This document shows, one piece after another, positions 1 to 25,352 of a stretch of 40,475 bases of DNA. Source of the DNA: a virus (taxonomy: Duplodnaviria > Heunggongvirae > Uroviricota > Caudoviricetes); the IMG/VR virus record IMGVR_UViG_2875713109_000005; one strand, given 5' to 3'. A program made the position numbers and the translations under genes. Below the pieces are notes generated by a model. That model did no database searches and had not been told where the DNA came from. It worked only from the letters and a program-made list of their open reading frames with translations. The stretch's first letter is position 1. Every line of letters starts with the position of its first letter.

Positions 1-318
1 ATGATGCAATCTGCGGGCATTGTCGCTAATGATGTTACTGTCACCTGGCGTAACGGGCACACAGCACTGCGCGATGCATCCTTCACAGTACCAAGTGGAT
101 CTATTGCCGCTCTGGTTGGGGTAAACGGTTCCGGAAAATCGACGTTGTTTAAAGCGATTATGGGATTTGTGCGTCTGACCAGCGGAAAGATATCTGTTCT
201 GGGTATTCCCACGCGACAGGCGCTACAGAAAAACCTGGTTGCCTACGTCCCTCAGTCAGAAGAGGTTGACTGGTCATTTCCTGTACTAGTGGAAGATGTG
301 GTGATGATGGGCCGCTAA
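1..318 (+). pseudogene. sitB: Truncated second copy of sitB (5' 105 codons of the Mn/Fe ABC transporter ATPase gene)
   Basis: Translation almost identical to the N-terminus of the intact SitB at 6957-7784, including Walker [11 protein letters not shown] few nucleotide differences; similarity ends near 312 and a stop follows at 316-318. Confidence 0.6.
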
Positions 319-488
319 TGGGCGATAGACTATCTTTAATTTCTCGCTCATACATCCTTGCTTTATGAATAAAACGCACCCCAGCAGCCAGTGCTACTGG
401 GGGCGGAGGTGTTGCTGGTAAAGTTAGGTATTGGATCAATGAGTGAGTCAACATAATATTAAACTCACAATTATAAATCAGCCATATA

Positions 489-1964
489 TTAGGAGCGCCA
501 AAAAAAACCTGAAAACAATATAATAACAGGATAAATTTCAAGGCGACCAAGAATCATAGCTATGCACATTAAATATTTTGCAATGTCATTAAGCACTCCG
601 AATGACGATGCAGTAGCCCCAAAACCTAATCCCATATTATTAATACATGCAGCCACTGTTGCAAATGATGTAAGAAAATCATATCCCATACCATTTAACA
701 CCAGTATAAAAAACACCGTGAAGAGAGTATAAAGAAAAAAGAAACTCCATACAGACCTCATTACACGATCTGTAACTATCTTCCCTCCTACATTTACACT
801 CAACAACGCTCTGGGATGAGAAAGCTGATTTATCTCGTGTTTGCTTTGTTTGAAAAGTATAAGAAATCGAAGTGACTTAATTCCACCACAAGTTGAACCT
901 ATACATCCCCCAAAGAAACTTGACAACAGCAAAAACACTATCGTGTGCGTGGGCCAGCTTGCATAATCCTGCGTAGCTAAACCATTATCAGTGAGCATGG
1001 AGCTGGCAAGAAAAAACGAATGAATAAAACTTCCATGCAAGTCATACATACCTATATGCCAGACCTGGAAAGAGGTAACAATGATCACCCCTAAGGCTAT
1101 TAACAGAAAGAAACGAAGTTCAATATCTCTGATTAAAGGTTTTATCGTTTTCCTGCTAATAACAATATACCAAAGAGTGAAGTTGAAAGCCGATAGCAGG
1201 GAAAAAGAACCAGCCACCAGCTCAACCAAATAGTTATTAAAATATCCGATACTCTCGCTATGAGTTGAGAAACCACCAAGCGAAACTGTGGAAATCCCGT
1301 GACAAATAGCATCAAACAAAGGCATTCCTGCAAGTCTATAACAGACAATACAAGCAATACCTAATAAAGAATAAGTTATCCACAGTGTCCGTGACGTATC
1401 GGCCAGGCGGGGAGTGAGTTTGTCATCCTTAAATGGCCCCGGCATTTCTGACTGATAAAGCTTTGCACCACCAATACCCAATAATGGCAATACAGCAACC
1501 GCCAGAACAATAACTCCTAAACCACCTATAAAATTTAACTGTGACCGATAGTACAAATATGCCCGAGGTAATGAACTAACATCATCAATTACAGTTGCTC
1601 CTGTTGTTGTTATTCCAGAAACCCCTTCAAACAGAGCATCAATGAACGTTAAATTAAGTTCTGAGTCAATCCATAAAGGGAATGCACTAATAACAGAAAA
1701 CAAAATCCAAAACATTACAATTATAATAAACCCATCACGGGTACGTAATTGAATGCCAGATTTCTTAGTTGTATACCACGCTCCGCCACCAATACAAAAA
1801 AATATAACGAAAGTTATAAAGAAAACGAACAGGCTTTTTTCTTTATAAAACAATGCTACAACCATTGGTGGCAACATTGAAAGACTATAGAGCCAAACCA
1901 GGAACCCACACATATGAGTAACAACTCTTACATGAGATGTATTCATATCTAAATATTCTTTCAA
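489..1964 (-). CDS. trkG: TrkH/TrkG-family potassium uptake membrane protein
   Basis: 491-aa polytopic membrane ORF with repeated glycine-rich pore-loop motifs (SGITTTGATV, LGGFS, GIKS). Lies just beyond the Rz/Rz1 genes as trkG does in Rac prophage. Recognised from memory. Confidence 0.8.
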   Translation of the reverse strand: MKEYLDMNTSHVRVVTHMCGFLVWLYSLSMLPPMVVALFYKEKSLFVFFITFVIFFCIGGGAWYTTKKSGIQLRTRDGFIIIVMFWILFSVISAFPLWIDSELNLTFIDALFEGVSGITTTGATVIDDVSSLPRAYLYYRSQLNFIGGLGVIVLAVAVLPLLGIGGAKLYQSEMPGPFKDDKLTPRLADTSRTLWITYSLLGIACIVCYRLAGMPLFDAICHGISTVSLGGFSTHSESIGYFNNYLVELVAGSFSLLSAFNFTLWYIVISRKTIKPLIRDIELRFFLLIALGVIIVTSFQVWHIGMYDLHGSFIHSFFLASSMLTDNGLATQDYASWPTHTIVFLLLSSFFGGCIGSTCGGIKSLRFLILFKQSKHEINQLSHPRALLSVNVGGKIVTDRVMRSVWSFFFLYTLFTVFFILVLNGMGYDFLTSFATVAACINNMGLGFGATASSFGVLNDIAKYLMCIAMILGRLEIYPVIILFSGFFWRS

Positions 1965-2083
1965 TTATAACCACCTTGCTGCAATATTATGATTATACTG
2001 TATAAAATTTAACTCCTCTTAGATCTTACTTCACTGTTCCTTATGAAACAATCATCAAAATGAATCATATTGTAGTTAAGATT

Positions 2084-2697
2084 TTACTTTAAACACTGTT
2101 CGGTTATGTATTGCTGAGCACCTTCAAGTTGGGCCTGCATCATTACCAGTCGTTCCCGGAGGGTGAAATAATCCCGTTCAGCGGTGTCTGCCAGTCGGGG
2201 GGAGGCTGCATTATCCACGCCGGAGGCGGTGGTGGCTTCACGCACTGACTGACAGACTGCTTTGATGTGCAACCGACGACGACCAGCGGCAACATCANNN
2301 NNNNNNNNNNNNNNNNNNTGTCTGCCAGTCGGGGGGAGGCTGCATTATCCACGCCGGAGGCGGTGGTGGCTTCACGCACTGACTGACAGACTGCTTTGAT
2401 GTGCAACCGACGACGACCAGCGGCAACATCATCACGCAGAGCATCATTTTCAGCTTTCGCATCAGCTAACTCCTTCGTGTATTTTGCATCGAGCGCAGCA
2501 ACATCACGCTGACGCATCTGCATGTCAGTAATTGCCGCGTTCGCCAGCTTCAGTTCTCTGGCATTTTTGTCGCGCTGCTCTTTGTAGGCGGTGGCGTTAT
2601 CACGGTAATGATTGACCGCCCACGACAGGCAGACGATGATGCAGATAACCAAAGCATAAATAATCGCGGCGACTCTGCTCACTGCTCTATCCCCCAA
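2084..2697 (-). CDS. Rz-type i-spanin (lysis), interrupted in this assembly by an N run and a flanking duplication
   Basis: N-terminal TM segment ([18 protein letters not shown]) then a coiled-coil region very similar to lambda Rz as recalled. Frame is broken by N 2298-2318 with 2186-2297 repeated at 2319-2430. Confidence 0.7.
2143..2295 (-). CDS. Rz1-type o-spanin lipoprotein embedded in the +1 frame of Rz
   Basis: Embedded frame encodes [45 protein letters not shown]: lipobox-like VVVGC plus a proline-rich tail as in lambda Rz1. The 5' end runs into the N gap. Confidence 0.6.
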   Translation of the reverse strand: MLPLVVVGCTSKQSVSQCVKPPPPPAWIMQPPPDWQTPLNGIISPSGNDW

Positions 2698-3212
2698 CAG
2701 GCTAATGCGCTTTCCTGGTCACGACGAATAACCTGTCCATAGCAGTTATTTGAACGTATGCGGCAATCGCGCCCACCATCTTTTATCCACCAGCGAATCG
2801 CCTCGCATGCGCCCTTACGATCACCGGCATTCAGCCGCTTATAAAACGTCGACGGGAAACACTTACCGGGGCCAATGTTATAGGGACAGAATGACGCTAT
2901 ACCCGCTTTTTGTGGTTCGGTCAGTGGTACTTTAATATTGCGCTCCACCCATGCCAGCGCCTTATCACGCTCAATGGCGTTGACCTGGTCGCATTTTTCC
3001 TTCGACAGTTTCATACCGGGAAAAACGGGTTTTCCATCCACCATCGTGGCACCCCGACAGATGGTCCAGATGCCGGACCCATCGCGGTATGCCGTTGTGT
3101 GGTTACCTTCTTTTTCATCCAGAAACTGGTCGAGAATATCAGGCGCGGGCGCACCGACGGCAATCAGTGCCAGAACGGCAGCCGACAGGCCGTATCTGAT
3201 TTTTGCGTTCAT
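2679..3212 (-). CDS. Phage endolysin, T4-lysozyme-like (GH24) with N-terminal signal-anchor-release (SAR) segment
   Basis: Hydrophobic, Gly/Ala-rich N-terminus ([16 protein letters not shown]) followed by an E-8aa-D-5aa-T catalytic pattern ([16 protein letters not shown]). Sits between holin and Rz. Confidence 0.8.
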
Positions 3213-3275
3213 GGATATTTATCAGGATTTATCGGTTTCTGCCCACGGACAGGTTTATCTGTTCCGGTCAGTGAC

Positions 3276-3626
3276 TTAAGGTTGTGATTCCGGAGGAGTC
3301 TTCAGAGAACCAGTAATTCTTCCCGGTAGCTTTCCTTTGTAGGTTATCCATACATTCTGCGCCTCTAAAATTACGGGGCGCTTTTCCGGCGACTGCTCAT
3401 CCCCTTCACATAACCCGGCAGCAACATCCAGGAAGACCTGTCTGATGCTCATTCTGGCTGCTGCCTCATAAAACTCCAGCGCGGCACCTTCAACACGGTC
3501 CAGCGAGATGTCCAGGTCAAAAATTTCACCGTCAAAGCGTTTTTTGTCCCGTAACGCTAAAGTTACCGTAACTTTATTCTCAAAATTGCGGATCCCTTTC
3601 ACAATCAGTTCATAGTTTTGAGTCAT
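3276..3626 (-). CDS. Hypothetical protein between holin and endolysin
   Basis: 116-aa ORF packed 4 nt after the holin stop and 63 nt before the endolysin start, same strand. No recognisable motif. Confidence 0.4.
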   Translation of the reverse strand: MTQNYELIVKGIRNFENKVTVTLALRDKKRFDGEIFDLDISLDRVEGAALEFYEAAARMSIRQVFLDVAAGLCEGDEQSPEKRPVILEAQNVWITYKGKLPGRITGSLKTPPESQP

Positions 3627-3630
3627 TGAA

Positions 3631-3846
3631 TTACTCTCCCCGTGCAGCCTTACGCTTGTCTTCTCTGATTTTGAAGTACAGATTTGTCAGATAAGTCAGG
3701 AAGCCCAGAACCAGACTCCCCAGCACACCAATCGCAGCCCACTGTGACGGACTGACCTGATCAAGCCACTGTAAAAACCAGTAGCCAGCACTGCCTGCGG
3801 AGGTGCCATAGGCAATGCCCGTTGAAATTTTGTCCATGGATTTCAT
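3631..3846 (-). CDS. Class II holin (S21/EssD-like) with dual-start motif
   Basis: 71 aa starting MKSM (Met1-Lys-Ser-Met4 dual start), two TM helices and a charged C-terminus ([13 protein letters not shown]). GGAGGTGA-type RBS upstream. Resembles DLP12 EssD as recalled. Confidence 0.8.
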
Positions 3847-3904
3847 AGCCTCACCTCCGCAAATAACGGATGGCGTAGTTTTACACTGAGAAATGAAAGG
3901 GATT

Positions 3905-3931
3905 TGAAAAGAAAAGCCCGCAAAAGCGGGC
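3905..3931 (-). terminator. Putative intrinsic terminator (minus strand) between the tRNA pair and the holin
   Basis: Hairpin GCCCGC-AAAA-GCGGGC at 3916-3931. On the minus strand it is followed by TTTTCTTTTC. Confidence 0.45.
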
Positions 3932-4138
3932 GAAACAATATATACAGTAAGGAAAGCACTCTATCCAACAAACCACCCACAGTTAATCGGAATAAAAGCA
4001 GAGTGCTTATGAATGATCGCCTGCCCGAAGGTTAGTATTTCTGCACAGCAATTTTGCAAAAAAAAGCGATCATTCATAACTTAAACGTCTTTCAGTCACT
4101 CCGGGATTTCCCATCATCGCAGACTGAAAGACTCTAAC

Positions 4139-4213
<75 letters not shown>

Positions 4214-4216
4214 ATA

Positions 4217-4292
<76 letters not shown>

Positions 4293-4728
4293 ATTGGTTC
4301 TTCAGGGGAGCGATATCACCGAGCGATATCACCGAGCAAAGAAGAGTTCCCCCTCAGAACCGTTTTCGATGATACAATTTAATATTCCAATCGCAACAAC
4401 ACTTTGCGTCAAGCTATGTAAATTTATTTATGTATTTTTATTTTATGTGAACATTTCACCTTCACTTAAAATATACGCGACAATATATAAACAAATTTAT
4501 TTTGAAGGCAATATTAAATGTCGTTTCTTATATCACACCACAATAACAACAAAACCCGCTTGATGGCGGGTTCTATTAAAGTTTAATTGCGCTTGATTCG
4601 CCTCGCGATACAGCTTTGCGAAGCGTAGCAAAATTGAAGCAGTTTATGCGTAAAAAATCAAGCCGTTTTTTGAGCGAATGATTCTCGCATGGGAATGTAT
4701 AGCGCATACTCAGCAACGGCCAACCAAT

Positions 4729-5444
4729 GGCTTTGTTGAATAAATCAGATTTCGGGTAAGTCTCCCCCGTAGCGGGTTGTGTTTTCAGGCAATACGCACG
4801 CTTTCAGGCATACCTGCTTTCGTCATTTTGTTCAGCGCTCGTACCAGGGCCATAGCCTCCGCAACCTGACCATCGTAGTCACGCAGCGTCAGTGAACCCC
4901 CGAACAGCTGTTTTACCCGGTACATCGCCGTTTCCGCTATCGAGCGACGGTTGTAATCTGTTGTCCATTTCCACCGCGCATTACTCCCGGTCATTCGCTG
5001 ATTAGCCACTGCACGGTTACGGTCTGCATATTCACCGGGCCAGTAACCCGCACCTTTTCGGGGAGGGATAAGNGCGCTGATTTTCTTACGCCGCAGTTCA
5101 TCGTGACAGAGCCGGGTGTCGTAAGCGCCGTCTGCCGATGCTGCCCTGATTTTTCTGTGAGTCTGCCGGATAAGACCCGGGAAGGCTTCTGAGTCCGTCA
5201 AAATGTTCAGAGACAGTTCTGAACAGATGATTTCATGTGTGTTGCTGTCAACTGCCAGATGCAACTTTCGCCATATACGACGGCGTTCCTGGCCATGCTT
5301 TTTGACTTTCCACTCGCCTTCACCAAAGACCTTCAGCCCGGTGGAATCAATCACCAGATGCGCGATTTCACCCCGGGTGAACGTTTTGAAACTGACGTTA
5401 ACCGACTTTGCCCGCCTGCTGACACAGCTGTAATCCGGGCAGCG
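4729..5444 (-). mobile_element. IS903 (IS5 family) 3' fragment with terminal inverted repeat
   Basis: Terminal repeat GGCTTTGTTGAATAAATCAGATTTCGGG starts at 4729. Encodes the transposase C-terminal region (DSTGLKVFGEGEWKVKKHGQERRRIW...AGMPESVRIA). Single N at 5073; ends at the N at 5445. Confidence 0.8.
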
Positions 5445-5445
5445 N

Positions 5446-5741
5446 AAAATCGTGTTGAGGCCAACGCCCATAATGCGGGCAGTTACCCGGCATCCAACGC
5501 CATTCATGGCCATATCAATGATTTTCTGGTGCGTACCGGGTTGAGAAGCGGTGTAAGTGAACTGCAGTTGCCATGTTTTACGGCAGTGAGAGCAGAGATA
5601 GCGCTGATGTCCGGCGGTGCTTTTGCCGTTACGCACCACCCCGTCAGTAGCTGAACAGGAGGGACAGCTGATAGAAACAGAAGCCACTGGAGCACCTCAA
5701 AAACACCATCATACACTAAATCAGTAAGTTGGCAGCATCAC
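5446..5741 (-). mobile_element. insA: IS1 left-end fragment (IRL plus 5' part of insA)
   Basis: IS1 terminal repeat GGTGATGCTGCCAACTTACTGAT in reverse complement ends at 5741. Encodes InsA N-terminus [40 protein letters not shown]. Joined to IS903 across the N at 5445. Confidence 0.8.
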
Positions 5742-6042: not shown

Positions 6043-6957
6043 ATGCTCTCAATAAAAAAAGTAACCATGCTCTTGGGGTGCCTAGTCCTCACCTGCTCGA
6101 TAGCATTTCAGGCGAGTGCAGCTGAAAAATTCAAGGTCATTACAACTTTTACCATCATCGCAGATATGGCCAAAAACGTGGCTGGAGATGCTGCAGAAGT
6201 CTCATCCATAACCAAGCCTGGTGCAGAAATTCATGAGTATCAGCCTACCCCTGGCGATATTAAACGTGCGCAGGGGGCACAACTGATTCTCGCCAATGGT
6301 ATGAATCTGGAATTGTGGTTCCAACGCTTTTACCAGCATCTCAATGGGGTTCCAGAAGTAATTGTCTCTTCGGGTGTGACGCCAGTAGGGATCACCGAAG
6401 GGCCCTATGAGGGCAAACCTAACCCCCATGCCTGGATGTCGCCAGATAATGCTCTGATTTACGTCGATAATATTCGTGATGCGTTTATAAAATACGATCC
6501 GGCAAATGCACAAACCTACCAACGTAATGCCGATACTTATAAAGCCAAGATTACCCAAACCCTTGCCCCCCTGCGTAAGCAGATTGCGGAACTCCCTGAG
6601 AATCAGCGATGGATGGTCACCAGTGAAGGGGCTTTTTCTTATCTCGCACGCGATTTGGGGCTAAAAGAGCTTTATCTGTGGCCGATTAATGCCGATCAAC
6701 AAGGAACACCGCAGCAGGTACGTAAGGTTGTTGATATAGTTAAGAAAAATCATATCCCGGCAGTCTTTAGCGAGAGTACGATTTCCGATAAACCAGCGCG
6801 TCAGGTTGCGCGTGAAACCGGCGCGCACTACGGTGGTGTGCTCTATGTCGATTCCCTGAGCACAGAAAACGGCCCGGTACCTACGTATATCGACCTTCTG
6901 AAGGTTACTACCAGTACGCTGGTACAGGGAATTAAAGCCGGAAAAAGGGAGAAATAA
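6043..6957 (+). CDS. sitA: Mn(II)/Fe(II) ABC transporter periplasmic substrate-binding protein SitA
   Basis: 304 aa with signal peptide ([18 protein letters not shown]). Cluster-9 metal-binding protein by recall; first gene of a four-gene ABC operon with overlapping junctions. Confidence 0.9.
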
Positions 6958-8638: not shown

Positions 8639-9492
8639 TGGCATTATTACTGGAGCCACTGCAGTTCACCTTTATGAGTCACGCACTGCTGATTTCACTG
8701 GTAGTTTCCATACCCTGTGCGCTGCTGTCGGTCTTTCTGGTCCTGAAAAGTTGGGCACTGATGGGTGACGCGATGAGTCATGCGGTTTTTCCTGGCATCG
8801 TGCTTGCCTGGATTCTGGGGTTACCTCTGGCTACAGGGGCATTCGTCGCCGGAGTATTCTGTGCGGTGGCGACGGGATACCTGAAAGACAACAGCCGAAT
8901 CAAGCAAGATACAGTGATGGGGATTGTTTTTTCTGGCATGTTTGCCGCAGGTCTGATCTTGTATATTGCAGTCAAACCAGACGTACATCTTGATCATATT
9001 CTTTTCGGCGACATGCTCGGGATAACCATCGGCGATATAATCCAGACGGTGATTATTGCCGGACTGGTTACACTTGTTATTAGCGTAAAATGGCGGGATT
9101 TTTTGCTGTTCAGCTTTGATTATCAACAGGCGCAGGCAAGCGGTTTGCATACGAGATGGCTGCATTATGGGCTGCTGTGCATGGTCTCCCTGACCATTGT
9201 GGCGACGCTGAAAGCGGTAGGTATCATTCTCTCTATTTCTCTTCTCATTGCGCCTGGTGCCATTGCGGTACTCCTGACACAACGCTTTCATATTGCGCTC
9301 CTGCTGGCGACTGGCATATCGATATTGGTCTCAATGACTGGTGTCTGGCTGTCCTTTTTTATCGACAGCACGCCAGCTCCGACAATTGTTGTCTTATTCG
9401 CGGTCATGTTCATCATGACGTTTACCGTTACCAGCATCAACGCACGCACAAAGGAAAATGCCGAACCACGGGATTTGTTATCATCCGATTAG
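8635..9492 (+). CDS. sitD: Mn/Fe ABC transporter permease SitD
   Basis: 285-aa polytopic membrane protein paralogous to SitC; 4-nt overlap with sitC. Confidence 0.9.
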   Translation: MMALLLEPLQFTFMSHALLISLVVSIPCALLSVFLVLKSWALMGDAMSHAVFPGIVLAWILGLPLATGAFVAGVFCAVATGYLKDNSRIKQDTVMGIVFSGMFAAGLILYIAVKPDVHLDHILFGDMLGITIGDIIQTVIIAGLVTLVISVKWRDFLLFSFDYQQAQASGLHTRWLHYGLLCMVSLTIVATLKAVGIILSISLLIAPGAIAVLLTQRFHIALLLATGISILVSMTGVWLSFFIDSTPAPTIVVLFAVMFIMTFTVTSINARTKENAEPRDLLSSD

Positions 9493-9680
9493 CAGAACAC
9501 TCGGCCAGCAACATCCGCTTATTGGCGATGCGCTTGAACGAATAATGCACAGACTTATGATTCTGATAAGTTTTGTTGCCAGAGAGTTGCTGCGGACTGG
9601 ATAGCAAGTAATGTCGATTCTCAGGGGTAGCAAACAGCGCAGTAAAATGAGGGAAGTAGTGGCAAAACATAGAGAAAATT

Positions 9681-9985
9681 GGGGGGCGAGGGCCAGTGAT
9701 GTAAAAAACCACGCTAAGAGTTTAATTAATTGTTTGTATTGAAGTTTAATGATCTTAACTCACCCTTAAGAATATCTTCCGGTAACGAAGACGTATAATG
9801 CCCCAGCATATTTATATGGCTATGTATCAGCAGCGATAATCTTGCCGGATGCTACTCCTCAGGAGTTTCTCCCGATTTGCGAAGATGTGACAACGCCTCC
9901 TGCATGTAAAGTGTGTTTCACAGCACAACCGCATTGGTCACCAGCCCCAGAGCACCTAGTTGATCTTCCTGCCCTTAACGGTAGC
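9681..9985 (-). mobile_element. Degenerate Tn3-family transposon end: 38-bp terminal repeat plus decayed 3' end of a tnpA-like gene
   Basis: GGGGGGCGAGGGCCAGTGATGTAAAAAACCACGCTAAG at 9681-9718 matches the Tn3 IR at 25 of 38 positions by eye. 9860-9990 resembles the 3' end of tnpA at 15235-15340 but carries in-frame stops. Confidence 0.5.
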
Positions 9986-9986
9986 T

Positions 9987-10130
9987 GAAGATGACTGGGC
10001 TGGATGGAAAATCCTGCATGGTGCATTGGGAGAGCAGATAGAATTGGTTGGCGACGATCTGTTTGTGACCAACGTAAAGTATATTCAGCGCGGCATTGAC
10101 GAAAACCTTGCAATCCTTTGTGTATCATTA
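9987..10130 (+). pseudogene. Enolase gene fragment (C-terminal-region codons only)
   Basis: Encodes [40 protein letters not shown], containing the conserved enolase block [10 protein letters not shown]. Diverged from E. coli eno as recalled; no start and no remainder of the gene. Confidence 0.5.
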
Positions 10131-10348
10131 AAATCTTTGTAGTAATCAGATTCCTTTCCATAACTGTCTTCAAGTAACTTTTTTGCTCTTGCAATCCAGT
10201 TATTACCTTTAGCCGAATCAATATATTCCTGGCTTCTGTGACTAAATGCACTTGTTCCCATATATTTTGTCGACATGACAGAATTGTACTCTTGTTCAAG
10301 CACTTCAAATCTTTCAGCTAAGGCCTTCTTCGTCATAGCGCAATCCAA
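10085..10348 (-). CDS. Hypothetical small protein (87 aa)
   Basis: ORF only; AT-rich; no recognisable motif. Its 3' end overlaps the enolase-like fragment on the opposite strand. Confidence 0.3.
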
Positions 10349-10505
10349 ATTATATGCTAATAATACCTGTGAATTTTAATATTCTACCATATCTGGCTTT
10401 CTTCCGTTCACATTGGACATTCAGGTAATTTCGTCCAGTTCTGCTGGCTGTGCTGGAGCTAGCCTGGTATAATTTAACCAGCCATTTCAACAGCGGTGGT
10501 GTCTT

Positions 10506-10700
10506 ATGAACGTCAAGAACATGTTTTACGGTGCCATTCTGGTAAGTGCTGTATGGGCGGTTATTTTGCTCTCATGGTTTGAATCCAGCCTTACCTTAAG
10601 CGATTACCTCAGGTACGAATCGGTAATCCTGATCCCATGCCTGCTGTGGGTTGCTGTTTATGGGTTAGGTAAACGTTACCTCCAAAGAACATCAAACTAG
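10506..10700 (+). CDS. Hypothetical small membrane protein (64 aa)
   Basis: GGTGGTG RBS-like sequence before the ATG and a TATAAT hexamer at 10468-10473. Two hydrophobic segments. Followed by the hairpin at 10733-10765. Confidence 0.35.
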   Translation: MNVKNMFYGAILVSAVWAVILLSWFESSLTLSDYLRYESVILIPCLLWVAVYGLGKRYLQRTSN

Positions 10701-10775: not shown

Positions 10776-11255
10776 CTACTGGCTTGCTGTGCCAAACTTT
10801 CCGTTGCAGATTTCCTCATTCACAATGGCCTGAAACATGGAAACAGAATTTCTAGCCTTATCCCTCAGTGCATTAATGAGTTCTGTGTCGTGTATTTTGT
10901 TGTAGAAAATGAAAGTAGAAACATCAAACTGGAGTTTAAATGCTGCTTTCCTTATGGCTAAACCTGACGTGATCGTTATCTCATTATGTATGCGAAGATA
11001 GGCAAGATAATCATCGTTATTTGCTTCACACTGCTCATATAAATATTTTTGCATGAGAGATTGAGACAAGGCCAGAAATTCCACATATCGTTTGGTTTTT
11101 ATTTCTTTATCTTTTAATCCCTGTACTGCCGCTTCTTTTTTTAATTCGTGCTTTTGTGTTAGCTTAAGAGTCAGCCACCCCCCTAAAATAGTCAGCAACG
11201 ACCCCAAACCTATTTTTACGGCATTATCAGCCACATCCACCCACTCAGTCGCCAT
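10776..11255 (-). CDS. Hypothetical membrane-anchored protein (159 aa)
   Basis: N-terminal TM segment (IGLGSLLTILGGWLTL) then a charged, helical soluble domain. AT-rich; no recognisable catalytic motif. Confidence 0.5.
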   Translation of the reverse strand: MATEWVDVADNAVKIGLGSLLTILGGWLTLKLTQKHELKKEAAVQGLKDKEIKTKRYVEFLALSQSLMQKYLYEQCEANNDDYLAYLRIHNEITITSGLAIRKAAFKLQFDVSTFIFYNKIHDTELINALRDKARNSVSMFQAIVNEEICNGKFGTASQ

Positions 11256-11372
11256 CTGTTACTCGTTCTTCCTGTGATGATCATGGTTGCCAGTATAATT
11301 CCAGCACAGACTGGACGTACAGCATTTTCTGTCCAGTAGACAGACTGTTACACTCAGGATAGGATAGCTTCT

Positions 11373-11822
11373 ATGGTTAAATTTCCAGGTGAAGTTATGA
11401 GTTCGTCCGCTGCTGTAACCGTTATAACTGGTGTTCTTGTTTTTGTTGGTGGTCAGCTCATTGTAAAGAGCGCGATTGAACCTTATATAGAATTCAAGAA
11501 ACAATTGGGAAAAATATCAAATCTGCTATTAGCTAACCAAGCTAAATTAGCTAATCCTTGTGCTGTTGAAATGTCTGAGATCATCCATGAGTTGAAAGAT
11601 GCCGCAGCTCAGTTAATGTCGAAGCATTCAGCTTTGCCTTTCTATATCAAAAAATTCCATATCGGATTCCGCTTTGTTCCATCAACGCCTGAAATTATTA
11701 GTTCGGCGCAAAAATTGAATTTGATAGCATCAATACATGAAGGTAAAAGCAAGGAAAGTACATATGAGCACATAGCCGAGATTGGACGTATGCTCAAAAT
11801 CCCAACCACCTATTCTCTTTAA
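11373..11822 (+). CDS. Hypothetical membrane-anchored protein (149 aa; start may be the internal Met at 11397)
   Basis: N-terminal TM segment (AAVTVITGVLVFVGGQLIV) plus soluble domain. Followed by a terminator-like hairpin. Confidence 0.5.
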   Translation: MVKFPGEVMSSSAAVTVITGVLVFVGGQLIVKSAIEPYIEFKKQLGKISNLLLANQAKLANPCAVEMSEIIHELKDAAAQLMSKHSALPFYIKKFHIGFRFVPSTPEIISSAQKLNLIASIHEGKSKESTYEHIAEIGRMLKIPTTYSL

Positions 11823-11881
11823 TCTTCACGCCGATCAGATTACATAATCCACGCGCCACCTGGACATTCAGGTAAAAAAGT

Positions 11882-11905
11882 CCAACTGGTGAGGTTGGGC
11901 TTTTT
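11882..11905 (+). terminator. Putative intrinsic terminator after the 11373-11822 gene
   Basis: CCAAC-TGGTGAG-GTTGG stem-loop followed by GCTTTTT. Confidence 0.45.
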
Positions 11906-11995
11906 GGCTTTCCGGTTCTGTTGGTGGCTATGACCGGAGAAAATTGCTCTACACCTAACGCTTACATTTTATTTACAGCGTTTGATATCTTCCTC

Positions 11996-12040
11996 GCCTT
12001 TAACGCCTTTAACGCCTTTAACGCCTTTAACGCCTTTAAG
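11996..12040. repeat. Tandem 9-bp repeat (GCCTTTAAC, about five copies)
   Basis: Direct read: gcctttaac four times then gcctttaag, immediately followed by a GGGGGG run. Confidence 0.75.
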
Positions 12041-12448
12041 GGGGGAAGATAGAGCAACTCACCGATGATGAATAAAGTGGACGAAGAGACGATAACTACA
12101 CTCCCATCCAGGGGGGGGGCTTTTTTTGTGGTACTGTAGTGTGGGAGTAAGTTCGGGTCTCATATTGAATGAGGCGATTGCGAGCTGCCTTTCATCGAAA
12201 ACTAATGTCCATTGTCATTGTATTGTCTGACTCTATCTCGTAACAAGTCTTTGACACAAAGTTTTATATTTTTATCAAAGTGGACATGAGGGGAATTAAA
12301 TTTGTGATCTTTTTCAAATAATGTGTTCTTGATAGTAGATTCTGGTTAGTGATATCTATTAACAATATATTAAATTTCTTTTGTATTATCGCTGATAAAA
12401 CTACTGTATTGGTATACTATATATTATTGAGTAACAGGAGATATCACT

Positions 12449-13951
12449 ATGAAGAAATTTTATCAATTTAGGGATGAACAGCGAAAGGAGCTTGAACAAC
12501 ATGATTTTTATAGTTTGATTTCTTCAGATTGTATAGCGTTGAAAGACAAACTATTATTTGCTCCTGTTATGGCTCATTTCATAATGAACTTCAGAGACAT
12601 GAATAAATGGGTTATCAGGTTTGATAACAATGATAATGAATATAAATCTGTTATAAACGGTGGAACAATCGAGGATGAAACACATTCAAGATTGTTTCTG
12701 GAAGACTGGAGGAAACTATATATAGATGACAAACTTAACTGGAAAGCAAGTGATGTTATATACTGGTTGTTTATTAGTCGAGAAATGGAGTGTTTCCGAA
12801 AATTTGGTATTGATTTTATGAGACTTTGTGTAGATGATGGAGGAGACCCAATACTTCGATATTCTCACTCCGAGTCAGGAGAAACTTGCGGTAATATATT
12901 CTTTTCAAGAATTAGTCCTATTGCTGATCAAGTTGCCAATCATTTGGGAATATCACTCCGTTATTTTGGAACATTTCACCTTAATCTTGAAAATGGACAT
13001 GTATGGAAGTCAGAAGGTGTTTTTGAAAATATAGAGTTGTCACCAGATTCTTATAAGAAAATGGCTACTCTATCAAAGAGAATGTTTGATATATTTGAAG
13101 GAATTCATGACTCTTTTTATAATTACCTGTCCAGTTATGTTCTTAATGGAAGTCATCCGTCATTTTTTGAATCATTACCTGTAGGGAAAAATGTTGCACC
13201 TATATACCCTGAATTTGTGATAGAAAACAAAAGCCATAACGATGGTAGACATATTGAACATATAAACAATTACCTGGAAAAAATATCGAGTCATGAGTTC
13301 TTTAAATGGCTGATTAACACCTCAATAGACCCTCAATTGAAATTGAAAAGTTTCATACCTCTTTGGATTGTTGATATTATGGGGTATAGAGATATTAATA
13401 AATATGTTTTTACATATGAACAGCCTGAATCAGAAAGTGAAAAGATTATAAATGATTATGCATTACACTTGTCAGAGCATAGCCGTTTATTTTATCATGA
13501 CTGGAAGTCACTTCAACTTGATGATATGTTACGTTGGAGTGCCAGTGATACTCTTGAGTTTATTTTTCTTAATTCAGATATGGATATGCATAGAGAAAAT
13601 ATAGTTAAGTTTTCTTTGTTCGGATTAAAACACAGAGATCCTGTTATCAGGTTCTGGTTTATGATGATACTGGAGTTAAGTGGAAAAGAATTTTTCTCTC
13701 ATGTTGGAGATATAGCTTTACAGGTGGAAAGTAAATATAATATTTATCTCCCATATTTATGTGGACGCCATGCAACAGAAAATGAGCATGAAGCATATAA
13801 TAATATGTATGAGCATTTTATGGTAAAGGAACTTAGCCCTGAACAAAGTGATCTAATAATACAAATTACAGACATGGTTATGCGGTCATTATTGAATAAT
13901 TTGGATATCTCATATCGATATGTAGTAAATAATTTATTGGCAGCTCGTTAG
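12449..13951 (+). CDS. Orphan 500-aa protein of unknown function with internal two-fold duplication
   Basis: Very AT-rich ORF with a GGAG-type RBS-like sequence upstream. Residues about 74-135 (THSRLFLEDWRKLYIDDKLNWKASD...) are repeated at about 340-400 (EHSRLFYHDWKSLQLDDMLRWSASD...). Terminator-like hairpin follows. Confidence 0.7.
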   Translation: MKKFYQFRDEQRKELEQHDFYSLISSDCIALKDKLLFAPVMAHFIMNFRDMNKWVIRFDNNDNEYKSVINGGTIEDETHSRLFLEDWRKLYIDDKLNWKASDVIYWLFISREMECFRKFGIDFMRLCVDDGGDPILRYSHSESGETCGNIFFSRISPIADQVANHLGISLRYFGTFHLNLENGHVWKSEGVFENIELSPDSYKKMATLSKRMFDIFEGIHDSFYNYLSSYVLNGSHPSFFESLPVGKNVAPIYPEFVIENKSHNDGRHIEHINNYLEKISSHEFFKWLINTSIDPQLKLKSFIPLWIVDIMGYRDINKYVFTYEQPESESEKIINDYALHLSEHSRLFYHDWKSLQLDDMLRWSASDTLEFIFLNSDMDMHRENIVKFSLFGLKHRDPVIRFWFMMILELSGKEFFSHVGDIALQVESKYNIYLPYLCGRHATENEHEAYNNMYEHFMVKELSPEQSDLIIQITDMVMRSLLNNLDISYRYVVNNLLAAR

Positions 13952-15068: not shown

Positions 15069-18000
15069 TTAAGCAACGTTTTCTGCCTCTGACGCCTCTT
15101 TTAATGGTCTCAGATGTCCTTTGGTCACCAGTTCTGCCAGCGTGAAGGAATAATGGCCGAGCATATTGATATGTCCGTGGCAAAGCGGGGAGAGGCGTGC
15201 GATATCTTCATCATTCAGTGTTTCACCCTGCGCCCGGAGATGATCCAGGGCTGCCTGCATATAAATAGTGTTCCATAACACGACGGCGTTAGTGACCAGC
15301 CCCAGTGTGCCCAGTTGATCTTCCTGACCGTCGGTATATCGTTTTCTTATCTCACCTTTTTGACCGTGACAGATGGCTCTGGCAACGGCATGGCGACTTT
15401 CTCCCCGATTAAGCTGGGTCAGAATGCGCCGGCGGTAATCTTCATCATCAATATAATTAAGCAGATACAGCGTTTTGTTGATGCGCCCCACTTCAATGAT
15501 TGCCTGAGTCAGTCCGGAAGGACGTTCACTTTTCAGCAATGAACGGACCAGCACTGAAACCTGTACTTTGCCCAGCTTCAGGGAGCCAGCGGTCCGGATC
15601 ATTTCGTCCCACTGAAGGACTATTTTTCGGGGATCTGATTGCCCTCTGGCAATATCATTCAGCACGCCATAGTCGGCATCATGGTCCATTCGCCAGAAAA
15701 CCGAAGCACCGGCATCAGCCAGGCGTGGAGAAAACTGGTATCCCAGCAGCCAGAAAAGGCCAAAGACAAGTTCGCTGGCACCTGCTGTATCGGTCATAAT
15801 TTCGGTTGGATTCAGCCCGGTCTCCTGTTCCAGAAGACCTTCCAGCACAAAGATAGAGTCCCTCAGCGTCCCCGGTATAACGATGCCATGAAAGCCGGAA
15901 TACTGATCGGACACAAAGTTGTACCAGGTGATCCCTCTGTTATTACCAAAGTATTTGCGGTTCGGTCCGGCATTGATTGTTCTGACTGGCGTAACAAAGC
16001 GCATTCCATCTGCAGATGCCACTTCTCCTCCACCCCATATCTGTGCCAGTGGCAGCGTTGCCTGAAAATCAACCAGTCTGGCATTAGCGCTGGTGATAGT
16101 TTCAGCCCGCAGATAGTTCGCTTTTGTCCAGTTCAGCCGGTGTCGGGTCAGTGCAGGAACATTTGATCTGATCAGTGGTTCCAGACCGATATTGCAGGCT
16201 TCAGCCATCAGCACGGCGCTGATGCTGACGGGCAGATCATCAACTCTGGCACTGGCTTCACTAGCATGGAAAAACTCATCAGCAAATCCGGTATGGGCGT
16301 TAATTTCGAGCAGCAACTCCGTTAAATCCACCGGAGGGAGTAGATCACTGATCATTTTGCTCAGTCGTTTCAGACTGTCCGGCTCATCAAGACTGGCGAG
16401 GGGAGAAATTGTCAACCGGGGCTTCGGGCCAGAAACATCGAGTTCGACAGCCTCATTTTCGCAAAGACGTGCAGCAACCTGTCTGTAACGACTATCAAGC
16501 TGATGACCCAGAGATTTTATTGCTTCCTGCGGGTCTGTCGGGTGCCCCAAAGAACGATAAACCTTAATCCGGTTTGCCTGCCAGTCAGCACCCTGTAGTA
16601 ATCTTGCACGAGGATCTCCCCACCGGTTACTGCCGGTAACGTAGACATCCCTCCGCCTCAGACTATCCTGCAGTTTACTGAGAAAGCAGAGCGTGTATCC
16701 CCTGCGGGTGATATGTTTTTCCTTGTTAATCACCAGCCGTTTCCATGACCGACTGATAATTTCCGTTGGTGCGTCGTCAAAAAACTGCCGCCGTGAGCTG
16801 AACTCCCGGCTGAGGTAGTCACAGGCATTCAGAGTGGTAACCCCGGCAGGTGCGGATGAAAATTTAACGGTATTCAGCAGATGGGGCAGGAAACGACGAA
16901 CGCGCCCGTACTGCTCCACCATTTCTTCATGAAAATTATCGTCTGAGGGCCGGGCAATTTCACGGACAAGCGTGATGATTTCAGCCAGCTTTTGCCTTGG
17001 GATGTAGCTGAACACCTCAGCACGAATCGATTCGTCCGGTGTTTCTTCTTTCAGCAGGTACGAACATGCGCTGGCGAGCGCCAATGCAGATTTATCCAGA
17101 TCCTTCAGCGAGCGGAGCCGTTTTTTCTGCCCAATCTTTCTGGCGTCACGGATGATAACGGCCAGCATGGCGTCCAGAACGTCCAATGCATCATCCAGCG
17201 CCAGCGTTTCCCATGCAAGGACAAAGGCAACCAGAACCGCCATCCTTTTCTGCGGTGACATCCTGGCAATATTGAACACCGAAGTCATACCAGCATAACG
17301 TGCGAGATTTTTCAGGCGCACAGCCGGGAGTGTACTCAGGTTTTCAGCATGCAGGCCAAAATCGTTCAGAGTTTTCCAGCGTTCAATTGCTTCATTAAAC
17401 GCCGGACCACTGATGGTCACAGGGCCCTTTTTCAGTGATTCCAGTAAAGACAGGCGGCTGCAATCAGTTGGCCCCAGCAGCATCTCCAGCTGTGAACGCT
17501 GTTCGGCTGACGGTATCAGTGCCAGTTTGTTCCACAGGCGCAACGTCGCCTTTTCCCTTACCTCTGAAATCAACCGGGTCAGCGTAGTGGCTCCGGGGAG
17601 AATAATACGATGTTGCATAAGCCACCCTGTCGCCAGATCGAAAAGCAGGCCAGGACGTTCGTTGCTTATCCAGCTCCGGGTATATAAAAGACGGGTAAGG
17701 CGAAATGTCCAGGGCCAGGCAAATTCACGATACTGATAGTGCTGACGTATCAGCGCTGCATGCTCACGGCGGGTATTTTCCCTCTGACCGTATTCTGCAA
17801 GAACGGTGATATCACGAATCCCGAGCTGTCTGGCGGTAAAATGCCGGACGCCGGAAGGAATATGATTCATATCGGTGAGGAAGGTGCCCAGAAAACGGAC
17901 ACATCCAATTTGCAGGGCAATGCCCAGACGGTTGTGATCACCTCTGCTTTTTCCGATAAATTCCTTGTCTGCTTCATCAAGGTGAAAATATCGTGCCAGC

Positions 18001-18074
18001 TGAAGCTCATCCGGTTCACCGGTGAATCTGCCATAGCTTTCAGTCTGCTCAGTGGTCAGAAAGTCAACGGGCAT
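15069..18074 (-). CDS. tnpA: Tn3-family transposase TnpA
   Basis: About 1001 aa starting MPVDFLTTEQTESYGRFTGEP (internal Met of the longer ORF in the track). Stop lies inside the terminal repeat. Confidence 0.9.
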   Translation of the reverse strand: MPVDFLTTEQTESYGRFTGEPDELQLARYFHLDEADKEFIGKSRGDHNRLGIALQIGCVRFLGTFLTDMNHIPSGVRHFTARQLGIRDITVLAEYGQRENTRREHAALIRQHYQYREFAWPWTFRLTRLLYTRSWISNERPGLLFDLATGWLMQHRIILPGATTLTRLISEVREKATLRLWNKLALIPSAEQRSQLEMLLGPTDCSRLSLLESLKKGPVTISGPAFNEAIERWKTLNDFGLHAENLSTLPAVRLKNLARYAGMTSVFNIARMSPQKRMAVLVAFVLAWETLALDDALDVLDAMLAVIIRDARKIGQKKRLRSLKDLDKSALALASACSYLLKEETPDESIRAEVFSYIPRQKLAEIITLVREIARPSDDNFHEEMVEQYGRVRRFLPHLLNTVKFSSAPAGVTTLNACDYLSREFSSRRQFFDDAPTEIISRSWKRLVINKEKHITRRGYTLCFLSKLQDSLRRRDVYVTGSNRWGDPRARLLQGADWQANRIKVYRSLGHPTDPQEAIKSLGHQLDSRYRQVAARLCENEAVELDVSGPKPRLTISPLASLDEPDSLKRLSKMISDLLPPVDLTELLLEINAHTGFADEFFHASEASARVDDLPVSISAVLMAEACNIGLEPLIRSNVPALTRHRLNWTKANYLRAETITSANARLVDFQATLPLAQIWGGGEVASADGMRFVTPVRTINAGPNRKYFGNNRGITWYNFVSDQYSGFHGIVIPGTLRDSIFVLEGLLEQETGLNPTEIMTDTAGASELVFGLFWLLGYQFSPRLADAGASVFWRMDHDADYGVLNDIARGQSDPRKIVLQWDEMIRTAGSLKLGKVQVSVLVRSLLKSERPSGLTQAIIEVGRINKTLYLLNYIDDEDYRRRILTQLNRGESRHAVARAICHGQKGEIRKRYTDGQEDQLGTLGLVTNAVVLWNTIYMQAALDHLRAQGETLNDEDIARLSPLCHGHINMLGHYSFTLAELVTKGHLRPLKEASEAENVA

Positions 18075-18795
<721 letters not shown>

Positions 18796-18907
18796 TACGC
18801 CTATTTTTATAGGTTAATGTCATGATAATAATGGTTTCTTAGACGTCAGGTGGCACTTTTCGGGGAAATGTGCGCGGAACCCCTATTTGTTTATTTTTCT
18901 AAATACA

Positions 18908-18936
18908 TTCAAATATGTATCCGCTCATGAGACAAT
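18908..18936 (+). promoter_or_regulatory. bla promoter (P3-type: -35 TTCAAA, -10 GACAAT)
   Basis: TTCAAA at 18908-18913 and GACAAT at 18931-18936 with 17-bp spacing, upstream of the bla start. Confidence 0.55.
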
Positions 18937-18965
18937 AACCCTGGTAAATGCTTCAATAATATTGA

Positions 18966-19838
<873 letters not shown>

Positions 19839-19985: not shown

Positions 19986-20602
19986 CTGAACAATGTGACG
20001 GACTCAGAAGCCTTCCCGGGTCTTATCCGGCAGACTCACAGAAAAATCAGGGCAGCATCGGCAGATGGCGCTTACGACACCCGGCTCTGTCACGATGAAC
20101 TGCGGCGTAAGAAAATCAGCGCCCTTATCCCACCCCGAAAAGGTGCGGGTTACTGGCCCGGTGAATATGCAGACCGTAACCGTGCAGTGGCTAATCAGCG
20201 AATGACCGGGAGTAATGCGCGGTGGAAATGGACAACAGATTACAACCGTCGCTCGATAGCGGAAACGGCGATGTACCGGGTGGGTTACTGGCCCGGTGAA
20301 TATGCAGACCGTAACCGTGCAGTGGCTAATCAGCGAATGACCGGGAGTAATGCGCGGTGGAAATGGACAACAGATTACAACCGTCGCTCGATAGCGGAAA
20401 CGGCGATGTACCGGGTAAAACAGCTGTTCGGAGGTTCACTGACACTGCGTGACTACGATGGTCAGGTTGCAGAGGCTATGGCCCTGGTACGAGCGCTGAA
20501 CAAAATGACGAAAGCAGGTATGCCTGAAAGCGTGCGTATTGCCTGAAAACACAACCCGCTACGGGGGAGACTTACCCGAAATCTGATTTATTCAACAAAG
20601 CC
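19986..20602 (+). mobile_element. IS903 3' fragment with terminal repeat, containing a 135-bp internal tandem duplication
   Basis: Starts inside the transposase gene directly after the Tn3 repeat and ends with the IS903 terminal repeat at 20602. Segment 20148-20282 is repeated at 20283-20417. Confidence 0.8.
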
Positions 20603-23175: not shown

Positions 23176-23177
23176 GA

Positions 23178-25352
23178 TTACGCCCAGTAGTTCACAACGC
23201 CATCATTCGATTCAGCCGTTTTAACCAAACGCTCTACCGATTTGGTGCAAGAAAACTCCGCCGTTATCTCTGCTTGATTATCCAACAGCGACTCAAGGCG
23301 AGGCAAGAATACACGGCTAACAAGCTCAGCTTTACTGTAATCGCCTACTTGCTTATCACCATCAAATGTGAATTTTGGTAGCACCTTATGAACGATAAAG
23401 TTGTTGATGGCCAGAGACTTATTGTCGTTTACATCGCTAAACAAACTTACGTAGTTAAGCCCCTGTCGAATGGTACGCATACCAAACTCCACGCCAAGCG
23501 GATCAAAGACATCTCGGTTTAAGGTCGTAAACAACTCGCAGAATTCATTCGTACGTTCAAATTTCGGATAAGGGGTACGCTCACCAAGCTCTTCAATATC
23601 AAACACTAGCGGTAAAGTAACGTCGTCTAGCCCGTAAGAGTCAATCTCATCAAAAATCGCATCCCAGTCGGTCAGCAAAGGACTCTTAAACTTCATCACA
23701 TGCGCGCGGTCAAGAATTTTTGGTGAGAGGTAATGGGTTGTTTCGTCGATGTTGATAGCACCAATAATTCTTACGTTCGCTGGAATCGTGATTGACGAAG
23801 GCGTGCCGAGAACACCTGCCAACATGCGTCTGATATCACCGTGGTATTTAATCAGTGAGTCTTTATCGCTAAAGCCAAACGCGCGCTTCATTTCAGCGTT
23901 AATTTCTTCATCTTGCATGAGCGCAACGAAGTCCACGATGCCATTTTTGCTGAACTTTTCTTGCGCGTTAGAAATGACAGAAACAACCCCTTTTAGCTCG
24001 GCAAGAACGTGTGCAGCTTCATCATCCGAGTAAAGTTGAATGGTCGGTTGCTCGTTACGCTCCTCTAGCTTAGAAAGAAAGTCGGCAAAGTAATATTCCA
24101 CTCGGGCAAGGTTCATTTCGTCTAAACAGATGAAGTATGGGATATCTGGGTTTTGCTTAGCCTCGATCAATGCCTCAAGAAATGGTGTCACCAAATATTT
24201 CTTCTCTAGGGGATTGTAATAACCCAGCAAATCTTCTGAACTAGTCCAGTTAGGCTTGACCGGAATGATCTTCGATACCCCACCAATAGCCTTGGCAAAC
24301 GACTGAACCAGGTTTGTTTTGCCTGAGCCTGAGTCCCCCGCCAGAATGATGAGATCATGGGTGCGAATAAGCGTTAGGAAGTTCTCGATAATATGGCGCG
24401 GGTACAAGATATCTCGTTCTTTTAGGTGCGCTTGAATGTATGAAACGGCATCACTGTAGTTAGAATCAAAAGCTTGCGAAAAAGAGATATGCTCGTCACG
24501 ATCCTTATTAGACAAGGTGCTTCCAACAAAAAGGTCAAAATCGTCATCATCCAAAAACTCAAAGCTTTTTAGGAATCCAGCCTTACTTTCGACATAAGCT
24601 TTTAAGCGTTCAATTTTTTTAGACATTGTTTCTTCTGCCTTCTTTTGCAATGCGATTTTGTGTTGCCATTCAGAGTGTTCAACTTCCAGCTTTTGGGCTT
24701 TCGCAATTGCCTGAGAGAGAACGTTATTTTTTTGATTTAGGTCATCTTGGACATGTTGAAGCTGATCTTTATATGACGATATCTGAGCCTTCAATGAGGA
24801 TTCTTCGCGCTCAAATTCTGCGTTAAGTGCAGTCACTTCGCTGTCAATTCTTGATTGAACGTTCTGTAAATGCTGCTTGTAAACAGCTTCATCAAGGAAG
24901 ATGTTTTCATCACCTTTGATGATGTCATTCGCCGTATATTCAGGAAGTTTGATAAGTCGACGGACTGAACTTACTACCACATTGCATTCGAACGGGTTTT
25001 CATGTTTTTCGCGTTCAGATTGAGGCGCTAAAGCAAGCTCGCATGAGACAAAACTCCCATCTTCCAAGCCAAATAACTCTTCGACACTTTTGAAGGAAAC
25101 AAAAACACCTTTGTCCATCGTCAAACGAACATTAATGGGATATTCAGTATCCAGTCCCGTTTGGAGGGATTTAATCTCTAAAAGACGGGTTGGGAGCTTT
25201 CTGCTATCGGAATCTGGGCCATTTAGAATCTTGCCCCAAACTGCCAGTTTTCCATTCGTAATCCCCCAACTCTCACAAAGGCATTGATAAAGCTCTTCAT
25301 CAGAGAACCCTTTAACCTCTTCAAGATTGTAGATAACTTGTTCTAAGGCCAT
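23178..25352 (-). CDS. P-loop AAA+ NTPase, McrB/AAA_5-like, with N-terminal domain and coiled coil (724 aa)
   Basis: Walker A LAGDSGSGKT (338-346), Walker B FICLDEMNLA (407-416) with the DE-x-N pattern of AAA_5/McrB proteins, sensor-like RIIGAINIDETT (528-539). Heptad-rich region about 165-255. Confidence 0.8.
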   Translation of the reverse strand: MALEQVIYNLEEVKGFSDEELYQCLCESWGITNGKLAVWGKILNGPDSDSRKLPTRLLEIKSLQTGLDTEYPINVRLTMDKGVFVSFKSVEELFGLEDGSFVSCELALAPQSEREKHENPFECNVVVSSVRRLIKLPEYTANDIIKGDENIFLDEAVYKQHLQNVQSRIDSEVTALNAEFEREESSLKAQISSYKDQLQHVQDDLNQKNNVLSQAIAKAQKLEVEHSEWQHKIALQKKAEETMSKKIERLKAYVESKAGFLKSFEFLDDDDFDLFVGSTLSNKDRDEHISFSQAFDSNYSDAVSYIQAHLKERDILYPRHIIENFLTLIRTHDLIILAGDSGSGKTNLVQSFAKAIGGVSKIIPVKPNWTSSEDLLGYYNPLEKKYLVTPFLEALIEAKQNPDIPYFICLDEMNLARVEYYFADFLSKLEERNEQPTIQLYSDDEAAHVLAELKGVVSVISNAQEKFSKNGIVDFVALMQDEEINAEMKRAFGFSDKDSLIKYHGDIRRMLAGVLGTPSSITIPANVRIIGAINIDETTHYLSPKILDRAHVMKFKSPLLTDWDAIFDEIDSYGLDDVTLPLVFDIEELGERTPYPKFERTNEFCELFTTLNRDVFDPLGVEFGMRTIRQGLNYVSLFSDVNDNKSLAINNFIVHKVLPKFTFDGDKQVGDYSKAELVSRVFLPRLESLLDNQAEITAEFSCTKSVERLVKTAESNDGVVNYWA

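Follow-up and report, generated by a model that had tools for sequence, protein, structure and literature searches.

How did a scrap of an enolase gene come to rest against a scrap of a transposase gene? The question is raised by the DNA of a tailed-phage record, IMGVR_UViG_2875713109_000005, analysed over its full length of 40,475 nucleotides and here called the window, in which the sitABCD cluster ends with sitD at position 9492 and a run of gene fragments follows. An initial annotation, made from the letters alone, had read part of this run as the decayed end of a Tn3-family transposon next to an orphan enolase fragment, and had suggested that an old transposon captured or transduced flanking DNA from another genome. 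RefSeq annotates three pseudogenes at the locus, a "Tn3 family transposase", a "phosphopyruvate hydratase" and a "malate dehydrogenase"; the first corresponds to the transposase remnant and the second to the enolase fragment described below. Comparison with related plasmids and genomes gives an answer that we consider very probable. On this view a single replicative transposon of the Tn3 family, with a fluoride-resistance operon (riboswitch, ppaC, usp, eno, crcB) as cargo, would have left its remnant at positions 9681-10111.

Terminal repeat and transposase remnant

Transposons of the Tn3 family (Tn3/Tn1000/Tn21 type) are bounded by 38-bp inverted repeats, encode a DDE transposase TnpA of about 1000 residues and a serine resolvase TnpR with its res site, and carry passenger genes. 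They duplicate 5 bp of target DNA on insertion and usually show target immunity. The window holds a left terminal inverted repeat of this kind, 38 bp at 9681-9718 (+), with its outer base at 9681 and the sequence GGGGGGCGAGGGCCAGTGATGTAAAAAACCACGCTAAG. It starts with GGGG, has CTAAG at its inner end, occurs once in the window, and found no match across 100 shuffles. Thirty-four of its 38 positions agree with the repeat that bounds an intact Tn3-family transposon of the Klebsiella quasipneumoniae plasmid pKAM645_1, and it can be aligned with both repeats of a Rouxiella element described below. The natural stop codon of tnpA falls within the repeat, as it does in the intact relative. The Tn3-family-like repeat proposed at the outset is thus present.

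The tnpA remnant occupies 9714-9985 (-). Translated against intact tnpA, it represents the last 90 codons (about residues 913-1002), with four in-frame stops and no frameshifts, so that the earlier description of a stop-riddled 3' remnant holds. Repeat and remnant together (9681-9985, 305 bp) are 90.8% identical to the end of the pKAM645_1 transposon (BLAST E 2e-120 to 5e-116), whose tnpA encodes 1002 aa and has tnpR beside it. The remnant matches residues 914-990 of that TnpA at 89.6% amino acid identity by tblastn, and Pfam model DDE_Tnp_Tn3 recognizes it at E 1.4e-16 over profile positions 327-389 of 389. Homology to the transposon stops at 9985. Codon differences from the intact gene comprise 12 synonymous and 12 non-synonymous changes, four of the latter being stops, as is characteristic of a pseudogene. 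A special meaning for four stops among 24 changed codons was considered and rejected; tnpA is already a pseudogene, with at least eight stops, in the longest form of this locus.

As it stands, the window copy is a 431-bp relic without transposase, resolvase, res or second repeat. Its transposase is represented by the 90-codon pseudogene; resolvase and res have been deleted, tnpR being found in pKAM645_1 and Rouxiella and as a 'tnpR fragment on the Escherichia coli plasmid pEC244_2. A single repeat is present in the window, its partner being found in fuller copies of the same insertion. No partner repeat occurs within the window at three or fewer mismatches, nor in a scan allowing up to 10 substitutions. 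Related elements were scanned for repeats with blastn-short, and the partner repeat of the pKAM645_1 element was not found in the 14 kb examined.

Insertion site

Directly outside the left repeat, in the sitD flank, lies AAAATT (9675-9680), a possible left copy of a target-site duplication. The same hexamer directly follows the right repeat in two plasmids that have both ends, pMS8345B and pEC244_2. These flanks agree at 6/6 positions as a hexamer and at only 4/5 in the 5-bp register expected for the Tn3 family, so a clean target duplication cannot serve as proof that the whole unit inserted at this site. Searches for an empty site returned nothing: no PLSDB record ran across the joint of a 300-bp reconstruction (sitD flank plus shiF flank), and an exact 38-nt pattern had no matches in GTDB genomes. 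Chromosomal sit loci are 85-89% identical and lose homology about 10-30 bp past sitD, and so supply no empty site either.

Both flanks contain traces of other insertion sequences. About 70 bp between sitD and the repeat (9520-9589) are 86-87% identical to part of the transposase gene of the ISL3-like ISEc38, and the flank past the right repeat in fuller plasmids resembles an istA fragment of the IS21-like ISEc12. To judge by these resemblances, the transposon insertion point is a patch of older IS debris.

Enolase fragment

The enolase fragment lies at 9984-10111 (+), 128 bp on the strand opposite to tnpA, as the initial annotation had it. Its 43 codons, from the eno gene of the transposon cargo, correspond to residues ~294-336 of E. 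coli Eno, and Pfam Enolase_C recognizes it at E 1.6e-11 (positions 159-200 of 296). The gene had been identified correctly, but its extent had been put at about 140 bp and carried to 10130, beyond where homology ends. BLAST and profile searches of the region thus give significant similarity both to Tn3-family tnpA and to enolase. A working enolase requires an N-terminal domain and a C-terminal TIM barrel, with the full set of catalytic and metal-binding residues, and only 43 residues are left here; by its sequence, the fragment is an enolase homologue that cannot act as an enzyme.

Divergence from the host gene, also proposed at the outset, is best seen in a longer, 137-residue form of this eno found on ColV-type plasmids. 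It aligns to residues 295-429 of E. coli K-12 Eno and is only 51% identical to it; for this reason the fragment is regarded as diverged from the host gene. Identity of the fragment itself is 96.9% to a copy in Rosenbergiella and 79.7% to the Rouxiella copy. A protein database search with the 137-aa C-terminus returned mostly short metagenomic fragments; P0003 led to AMYV01000071. The closest full-length relatives of the plasmid enolase are found in ppaC-(usp)-eno-(gpmA)-crcB clusters behind a fluoride riboswitch, among them those of AMYV01000071 (95% amino acid identity) and of E. roggenkampii plasmid pY546 (85%, C-terminus).

Short, medium and long forms on other plasmids

The block formed by sitD flank, repeat and tnpA remnant recurs at 99% identity or more in some 1,000 plasmids, most of them IncF plasmids of E. 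coli. A search for the same junction in other genomes found the window arrangement, with 128 bp of eno and no crcB, over the whole of 9640-10360 in about 150 plasmid records, which represent a short form of the locus. About 840 plasmids part from the window exactly at 10111. In the medium form, exemplified by pMS8345B, the enolase frame continues for 414 bp to a stop and is followed by crcB (split in this plasmid by an IS3-family element), shiF and iucA, giving the order sitD - Tn3 remnant - eno' - crcB - shiF - iuc in ColV-type plasmids. In pMS8345B a second, inverted copy of the repeat follows crcB at a distance of about 155 bp (L004 3256-3293); it is identical to the left repeat at 27 of its outer 28 nucleotides. 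Both ColV repeats have a derived GGGGGG start where relatives have GGGGTT, and they have in common about 18 bp of subterminal sequence that includes the motif GGTTAATTCATTGTTT, found at the ends of related elements.

The long form is found on pEC244_2, which carries the INTERMEDIATE at the same site, a version of 5,867 bp with an identical sitD-flank junction. Its order is sitD - IR - 1.7-kb tnpA pseudogene - 'tnpR - riboswitch - ppaC - usp - eno (414 aa) - crcB - IR - shiF - iucA. Window positions 9000-9985 are 99.6% identical to pEC244_2, all four mismatches falling in sitD and the transposon end being identical. The match to window positions 9984-10111, at 100% identity, lies 4,239 bp beyond, inside the intact eno (positions 6176-6303 of the reverse-complemented pEC244_2 sequence, L015). 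From the spacing of these two matches it follows that the window has the long form minus 4,239 bp, with tnpA codon ~913 joined to eno codon ~293. At least 80% of this 4.2-kb segment is retained in only 16 PLSDB records.

The locus is known from work on ColV plasmids under other names. The 'truncated enolase' or 'putative enolase' (ORF17 of pS88) and crcB are listed as core items of ColV and neonatal-meningitis plasmid genomes (PMC3438092, PMC4723317), and the same papers put the plasmid enolase at about 33% of a complete gene, with 51% identity to the chromosomal one (PMC4723317, PMC3438092). The window shares that locus and that degree of identity, but represents a shorter variant, with 128 bp of eno and no crcB. 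In those papers a metabolic role, or one in aid of the shikimate pathway, was considered for the enolase, and crcB was taken for a camphor or condensation gene (PMC3438092, PMC4723317). Neither paper links enolase or crcB to a Tn3-family transposon, or eno to fluoride (PMC3438092, PMC4723317).

Conservation at 99% or more across about 1,000 plasmids might suggest that the fragment is kept for some function, whether as 3' UTR or terminator of sitABCD, as a small peptide (a TTG-started 60-aa ORF, 9960-10142), or as a repeat that provides Tn3-type target immunity or on which a related transposase can act in trans. In pS88 the longer enolase ORF is moreover transcribed, and up-regulated in urine (PMC3438092). 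Recent clonal descent of the plasmids, however, explains the conservation, the region has been cut repeatedly and at different points, and 43 residues are too small a part of a TIM barrel to make an enolase. We regard retention for a function as highly improbable, and the window fragment is most likely functionless debris of the transposon.

Intact relatives and their cargo

A search of GTDB genomes with CrcB found an intact element of 7,601 bp in Rouxiella sp. T17 (L009 2994-10594), with the layout IR-tnpA-tnpR-fluoride riboswitch-ppaC-usp-eno-crcB-IR. Its repeats (2994-3031 and 10557-10594) are flanked by a perfect 5-bp duplication, ATCTA/ATCTA; tnpR lies at 6194-6757 and the riboswitch (RF01734, 46 bits) at 6850-6924. 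The Rouxiella TnpA, of 1001 aa, is 95.7% identical to that of pKAM645_1. Rosenbergiella metrosideri has the same gene order with a more distant tnpA, and the two genomes together identify the operon as cargo of this type of transposon. A second fluoride riboswitch in R. metrosideri, on the opposite strand just downstream of crcB (L012 10507-10576, minus strand), implies that another fluoride-regulated unit faces the operon there.

By the homology of its repeat and transposase the relic belongs to the Tn3 family, with which it shares the 38-bp GGGG...CTAAG repeat, the tnpA stop inside that repeat and a TnpA C-terminus matching DDE_Tnp_Tn3. The intact relatives add divergent tnpA and tnpR, cargo between tnpR and the far repeat, and the 5-bp target duplication. 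They differ from familiar members in that the cargo is a riboswitch-controlled fluoride-resistance operon, not antibiotic or mercury resistance, and the element carries no name in RefSeq. No fluoride riboswitch was found in the window; riboswitch-controlled operons are seen in the parent forms, by record annotation in the case of pEC244_2, and fluoride riboswitches also precede ppaC in the related clusters of AMYV01000071 (L006) and L007.

Both enolase and pyrophosphatase are sensitive to fluoride, an ion that CrcB exports. In Enterobacter cloacae FRM, an operon ppaC-uspA-eno-gpmA-crcB confers fluoride resistance (Liu et al. 2017, PMC5533749). The transposon cargo has ppaC, usp, eno and crcB in the same order as the GI3 operon of that strain (ppaC-uspA-eno-gpmA-crcB-orf5249, PMC5533749), with a fluoride riboswitch ahead, and by this homology the intact transposon-borne operon would confer fluoride resistance as well. 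The pY546 cluster has the full FRM-type order and, as noted, an Eno C-terminus 85% identical to the ColV one, whereas the transposon-borne operon lacks gpmA and the P-type ATPase, and the window retains 43 codons of eno only.

Rouxiella supplies the closest intact relative of the ColV element, yet overall identity is only about 90%, and about 90-91% over the segments that ColV plasmids retain. The long form on pEC244_2 lacks 1,705 bp present in Rouxiella (tnpA codons 1 to ~429, res, and the 5' part of tnpR). Its cargo genes are open and differ from those of Rouxiella mostly at synonymous positions (130 synonymous against 32 non-synonymous in eno), and its cargo is mosaic, with ppaC and crcB at 98% identity, usp at 88% and eno at 86%. 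Selection that retained the cargo after the death of the transposase accounts for a stop-riddled tnpA scrap adjoining a clean enolase scrap.

The mosaic cargo, together with the existence of ppaC-eno-crcB clusters without this transposon (as on pY546, with gpmA and a P-type ATPase) and the lack of an empty site in PLSDB or, as an exact pattern, in GTDB genomes, would fit two unrelated histories, in which an eno-crcB island already stood by shiF-iuc, an unrelated Tn3-family transposon inserted nearby, and a deletion fused them. We judge this very unlikely. Some 155 bp beyond the ColV crcB there is a matching inverted repeat, with the same lineage-specific GGGGGG start and subterminal sequence as the left repeat; gene order is collinear both with the Rouxiella element, flanked by its target duplication, and with Rosenbergiella, and an inverted repeat also follows crcB in AMYV01000071. 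In that contig (L006 5136-5176) the fluoride-operon element ends, at its right repeat, against codon ~250 within the tnpA of another, related Tn3-family element. It seems that one member of the family inserted into the other, or recombined with it, in spite of the target immunity usual for such elements.

The intact structures bear equally on the initial proposal of an old transposon that brought DNA from elsewhere. Part of it stands: the transposon is old and decayed, and a foreign enolase travelled with it. The enolase is clearly foreign, with 51% identity to host Eno, and physically adjoins transposon sequence, and both points would also be expected had the transposon picked up or transduced DNA flanking it in another genome, for instance by one-ended transposition or read-out. 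The adjacency, however, is not to the transposon terminus. The enolase meets the broken interior of tnpA at codon ~913, and what lies outside the repeat is the sitD flank. In intact and semi-intact copies eno lies within an operon between both repeats, and the target duplication lies outside both. Contradicted by the pEC244_2 and Rouxiella structures, capture of flanking DNA is highly improbable, and the part of the proposal that invoked it is replaced by eno as internal cargo.

Deletion joints and the neighbouring nuclease gene

The window contains two joints, each at a dinucleotide shared by the sequences that meet there. At the first (9984-9985), seen by sequence alignment, the tnpA side and the eno side have GC in common, and the two BLAST segments of the window against pEC244_2 overlap by just these 2 nt. 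The window reads ...ACGGTAGC|TGAAGATG, the transposon ...ACGGTAGC|GTTTTC, and eno ...GGTCTCGC|TGAGGATG. At the second (10110-10111), likewise found by alignment, GC is common to eno and to a fragment of a neighbouring nuclease gene. Here the window reads ...CCTTGC|AATCCTTTG, eno ...CCTTGC|CAATTCAGC, and the full-length nuclease gene (L005) ...CCAAGC|AATCCTTTG.

The nuclease-gene fragment lies outside the transposon, at 10110-10336 (-), and holds the first 76 codons of a gene with a DpnII/MboI-like restriction-endonuclease domain, the 3' part being missing. At 98% identity it corresponds to the 5' end of a gene on pEC31-3 that encodes 263 aa and matches Pfam PF18742 (REase_DpnII-MboI) at E 1.1e-49. 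The RefSeq label of malate dehydrogenase for 10109-10336 (-) was rejected. The full-length homologue has the DpnII/MboI-like nuclease domain and no dehydrogenase domain, for which reason the name seems to be an annotation error passed from record to record.

The right repeat, crcB and the remainder of eno are absent from the window. The enolase of the window is an orphan only because the second rearrangement, at 10111, removed its 3' part together with crcB and the right repeat.

Other features of the window

The left end of the window (1-5700) looks like a lambdoid or rac-type prophage, not a ColV plasmid, with a TrkH-family gene (489-1964), Rz/Rz1, phage lysozyme and DUF1327. Genes for tRNA-Gly(TCC) and tRNA-Thr(TGT) at 4139-4292 are followed by an IS1 (4785-5687) directly before sitA. 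ColV plasmids in PLSDB match the window only from about 4730 on, and a RalA/RalR (rac-type) RNA is found at 38741-38919. The plasmid-derived block may sit within a prophage.

The module that replaces eno-crcB includes three ORFs of 159, 149 and 500 aa (10776-13951) that have no Pfam match and recur in about 200 plasmids, an AgrB-like antisense RNA match (RF02891, 46 bits) at 11872-11958, and a hexanucleotide repeat, translated as FNAFNAFNAFNAF, around 11990-12040. A separate, apparently intact Tn2/Tn3-type unit at 15069-19838 comprises a tnpA ORF, tnpR and a 286-aa ORF of the size of blaTEM-1, and its RefSeq matches are named as Tn3-like element and TEM-1. TnpA identity between this unit and the relic's intact relatives is only 64%, so that the two are unrelated representatives of the Tn3 family. 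At 20572-25352 (-) lie two large adjacent ORFs, one of 867 aa with a PD-(D/E)XK nuclease domain and one of 724 aa with an AAA_5 ATPase domain; the pair looks like a two-gene nuclease/ATPase module and is possibly a defence system.

Discussion

We propose a history in four steps. In a forerunner of the ColV-type IncF virulence plasmids, a cargo-bearing element would have entered the space between sit and shiF-iuc by replicative transposition, immediately downstream of sitD. Loss of the 5' part of tnpA, of res and of the 5' part of tnpR would have come second; the remaining tnpA then decayed while the operon stayed intact, the stage represented by pEC244_2. Third, an internal deletion of 4,239 bp at a 2-nt microhomology would have fused tnpA codon ~913 to eno codon ~293, yielding the common ColV form, eno' - crcB - right repeat. 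In the lineage of the window, a second microhomology joint, at 10111, would finally have put unrelated DNA in place of the remainder of eno, crcB and the right repeat. The homologies and collinearity, both joints, the intermediate forms and their nesting can be seen directly. The order of the steps is inferred from that nested structure, not from a plasmid phylogeny, and illegitimate recombination at 2-nt microhomologies is the mechanism that the joints suggest for the deletions.

The pieces were already known singly, as RefSeq pseudogenes and as a ColV core item. What is added here is their very probable common origin, and the source would be an apparently unnamed member of a well-known family. 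Our literature search, which lay mostly outside subscription journals and TnCentral, found no paper on a Tn3-family fluoride-resistance transposon or on the origin of the ColV enolase fragment.

A wider reading is offered tentatively, as possible but, taken whole, rather doubtful. The parent may be an undescribed Tn3-family transposon that spreads a self-regulated fluoride-resistance operon in Enterobacterales and that seeded the sit-iuc junction of essentially all ColV-type plasmids, of which a minority (the 16 PLSDB records) would still have a working operon. The ColV 'truncated enolase' and odd crcB would be its debris, and the repeat in the window may still serve related transposases, in target immunity or one-ended events.

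For the window itself the result has annotation value: the fragments are those of pseudogenes, and the adjacent "malate dehydrogenase" label is wrong. The understanding of transposons or of enolases is unchanged by what is an ordinary mobile-element scar, if one whose history is well resolved. For ColV-type plasmids, one simple origin would serve for three puzzles, the Tn3-like scrap, the "truncated enolase" and the divergent crcB, where papers had speculated on metabolic or chromosome-condensation roles for enolase and crcB. More broadly, the findings point to a Tn3-family transposon as a vehicle of fluoride resistance in Enterobacterales, with intact copies still present on some E. coli and Klebsiella plasmids.
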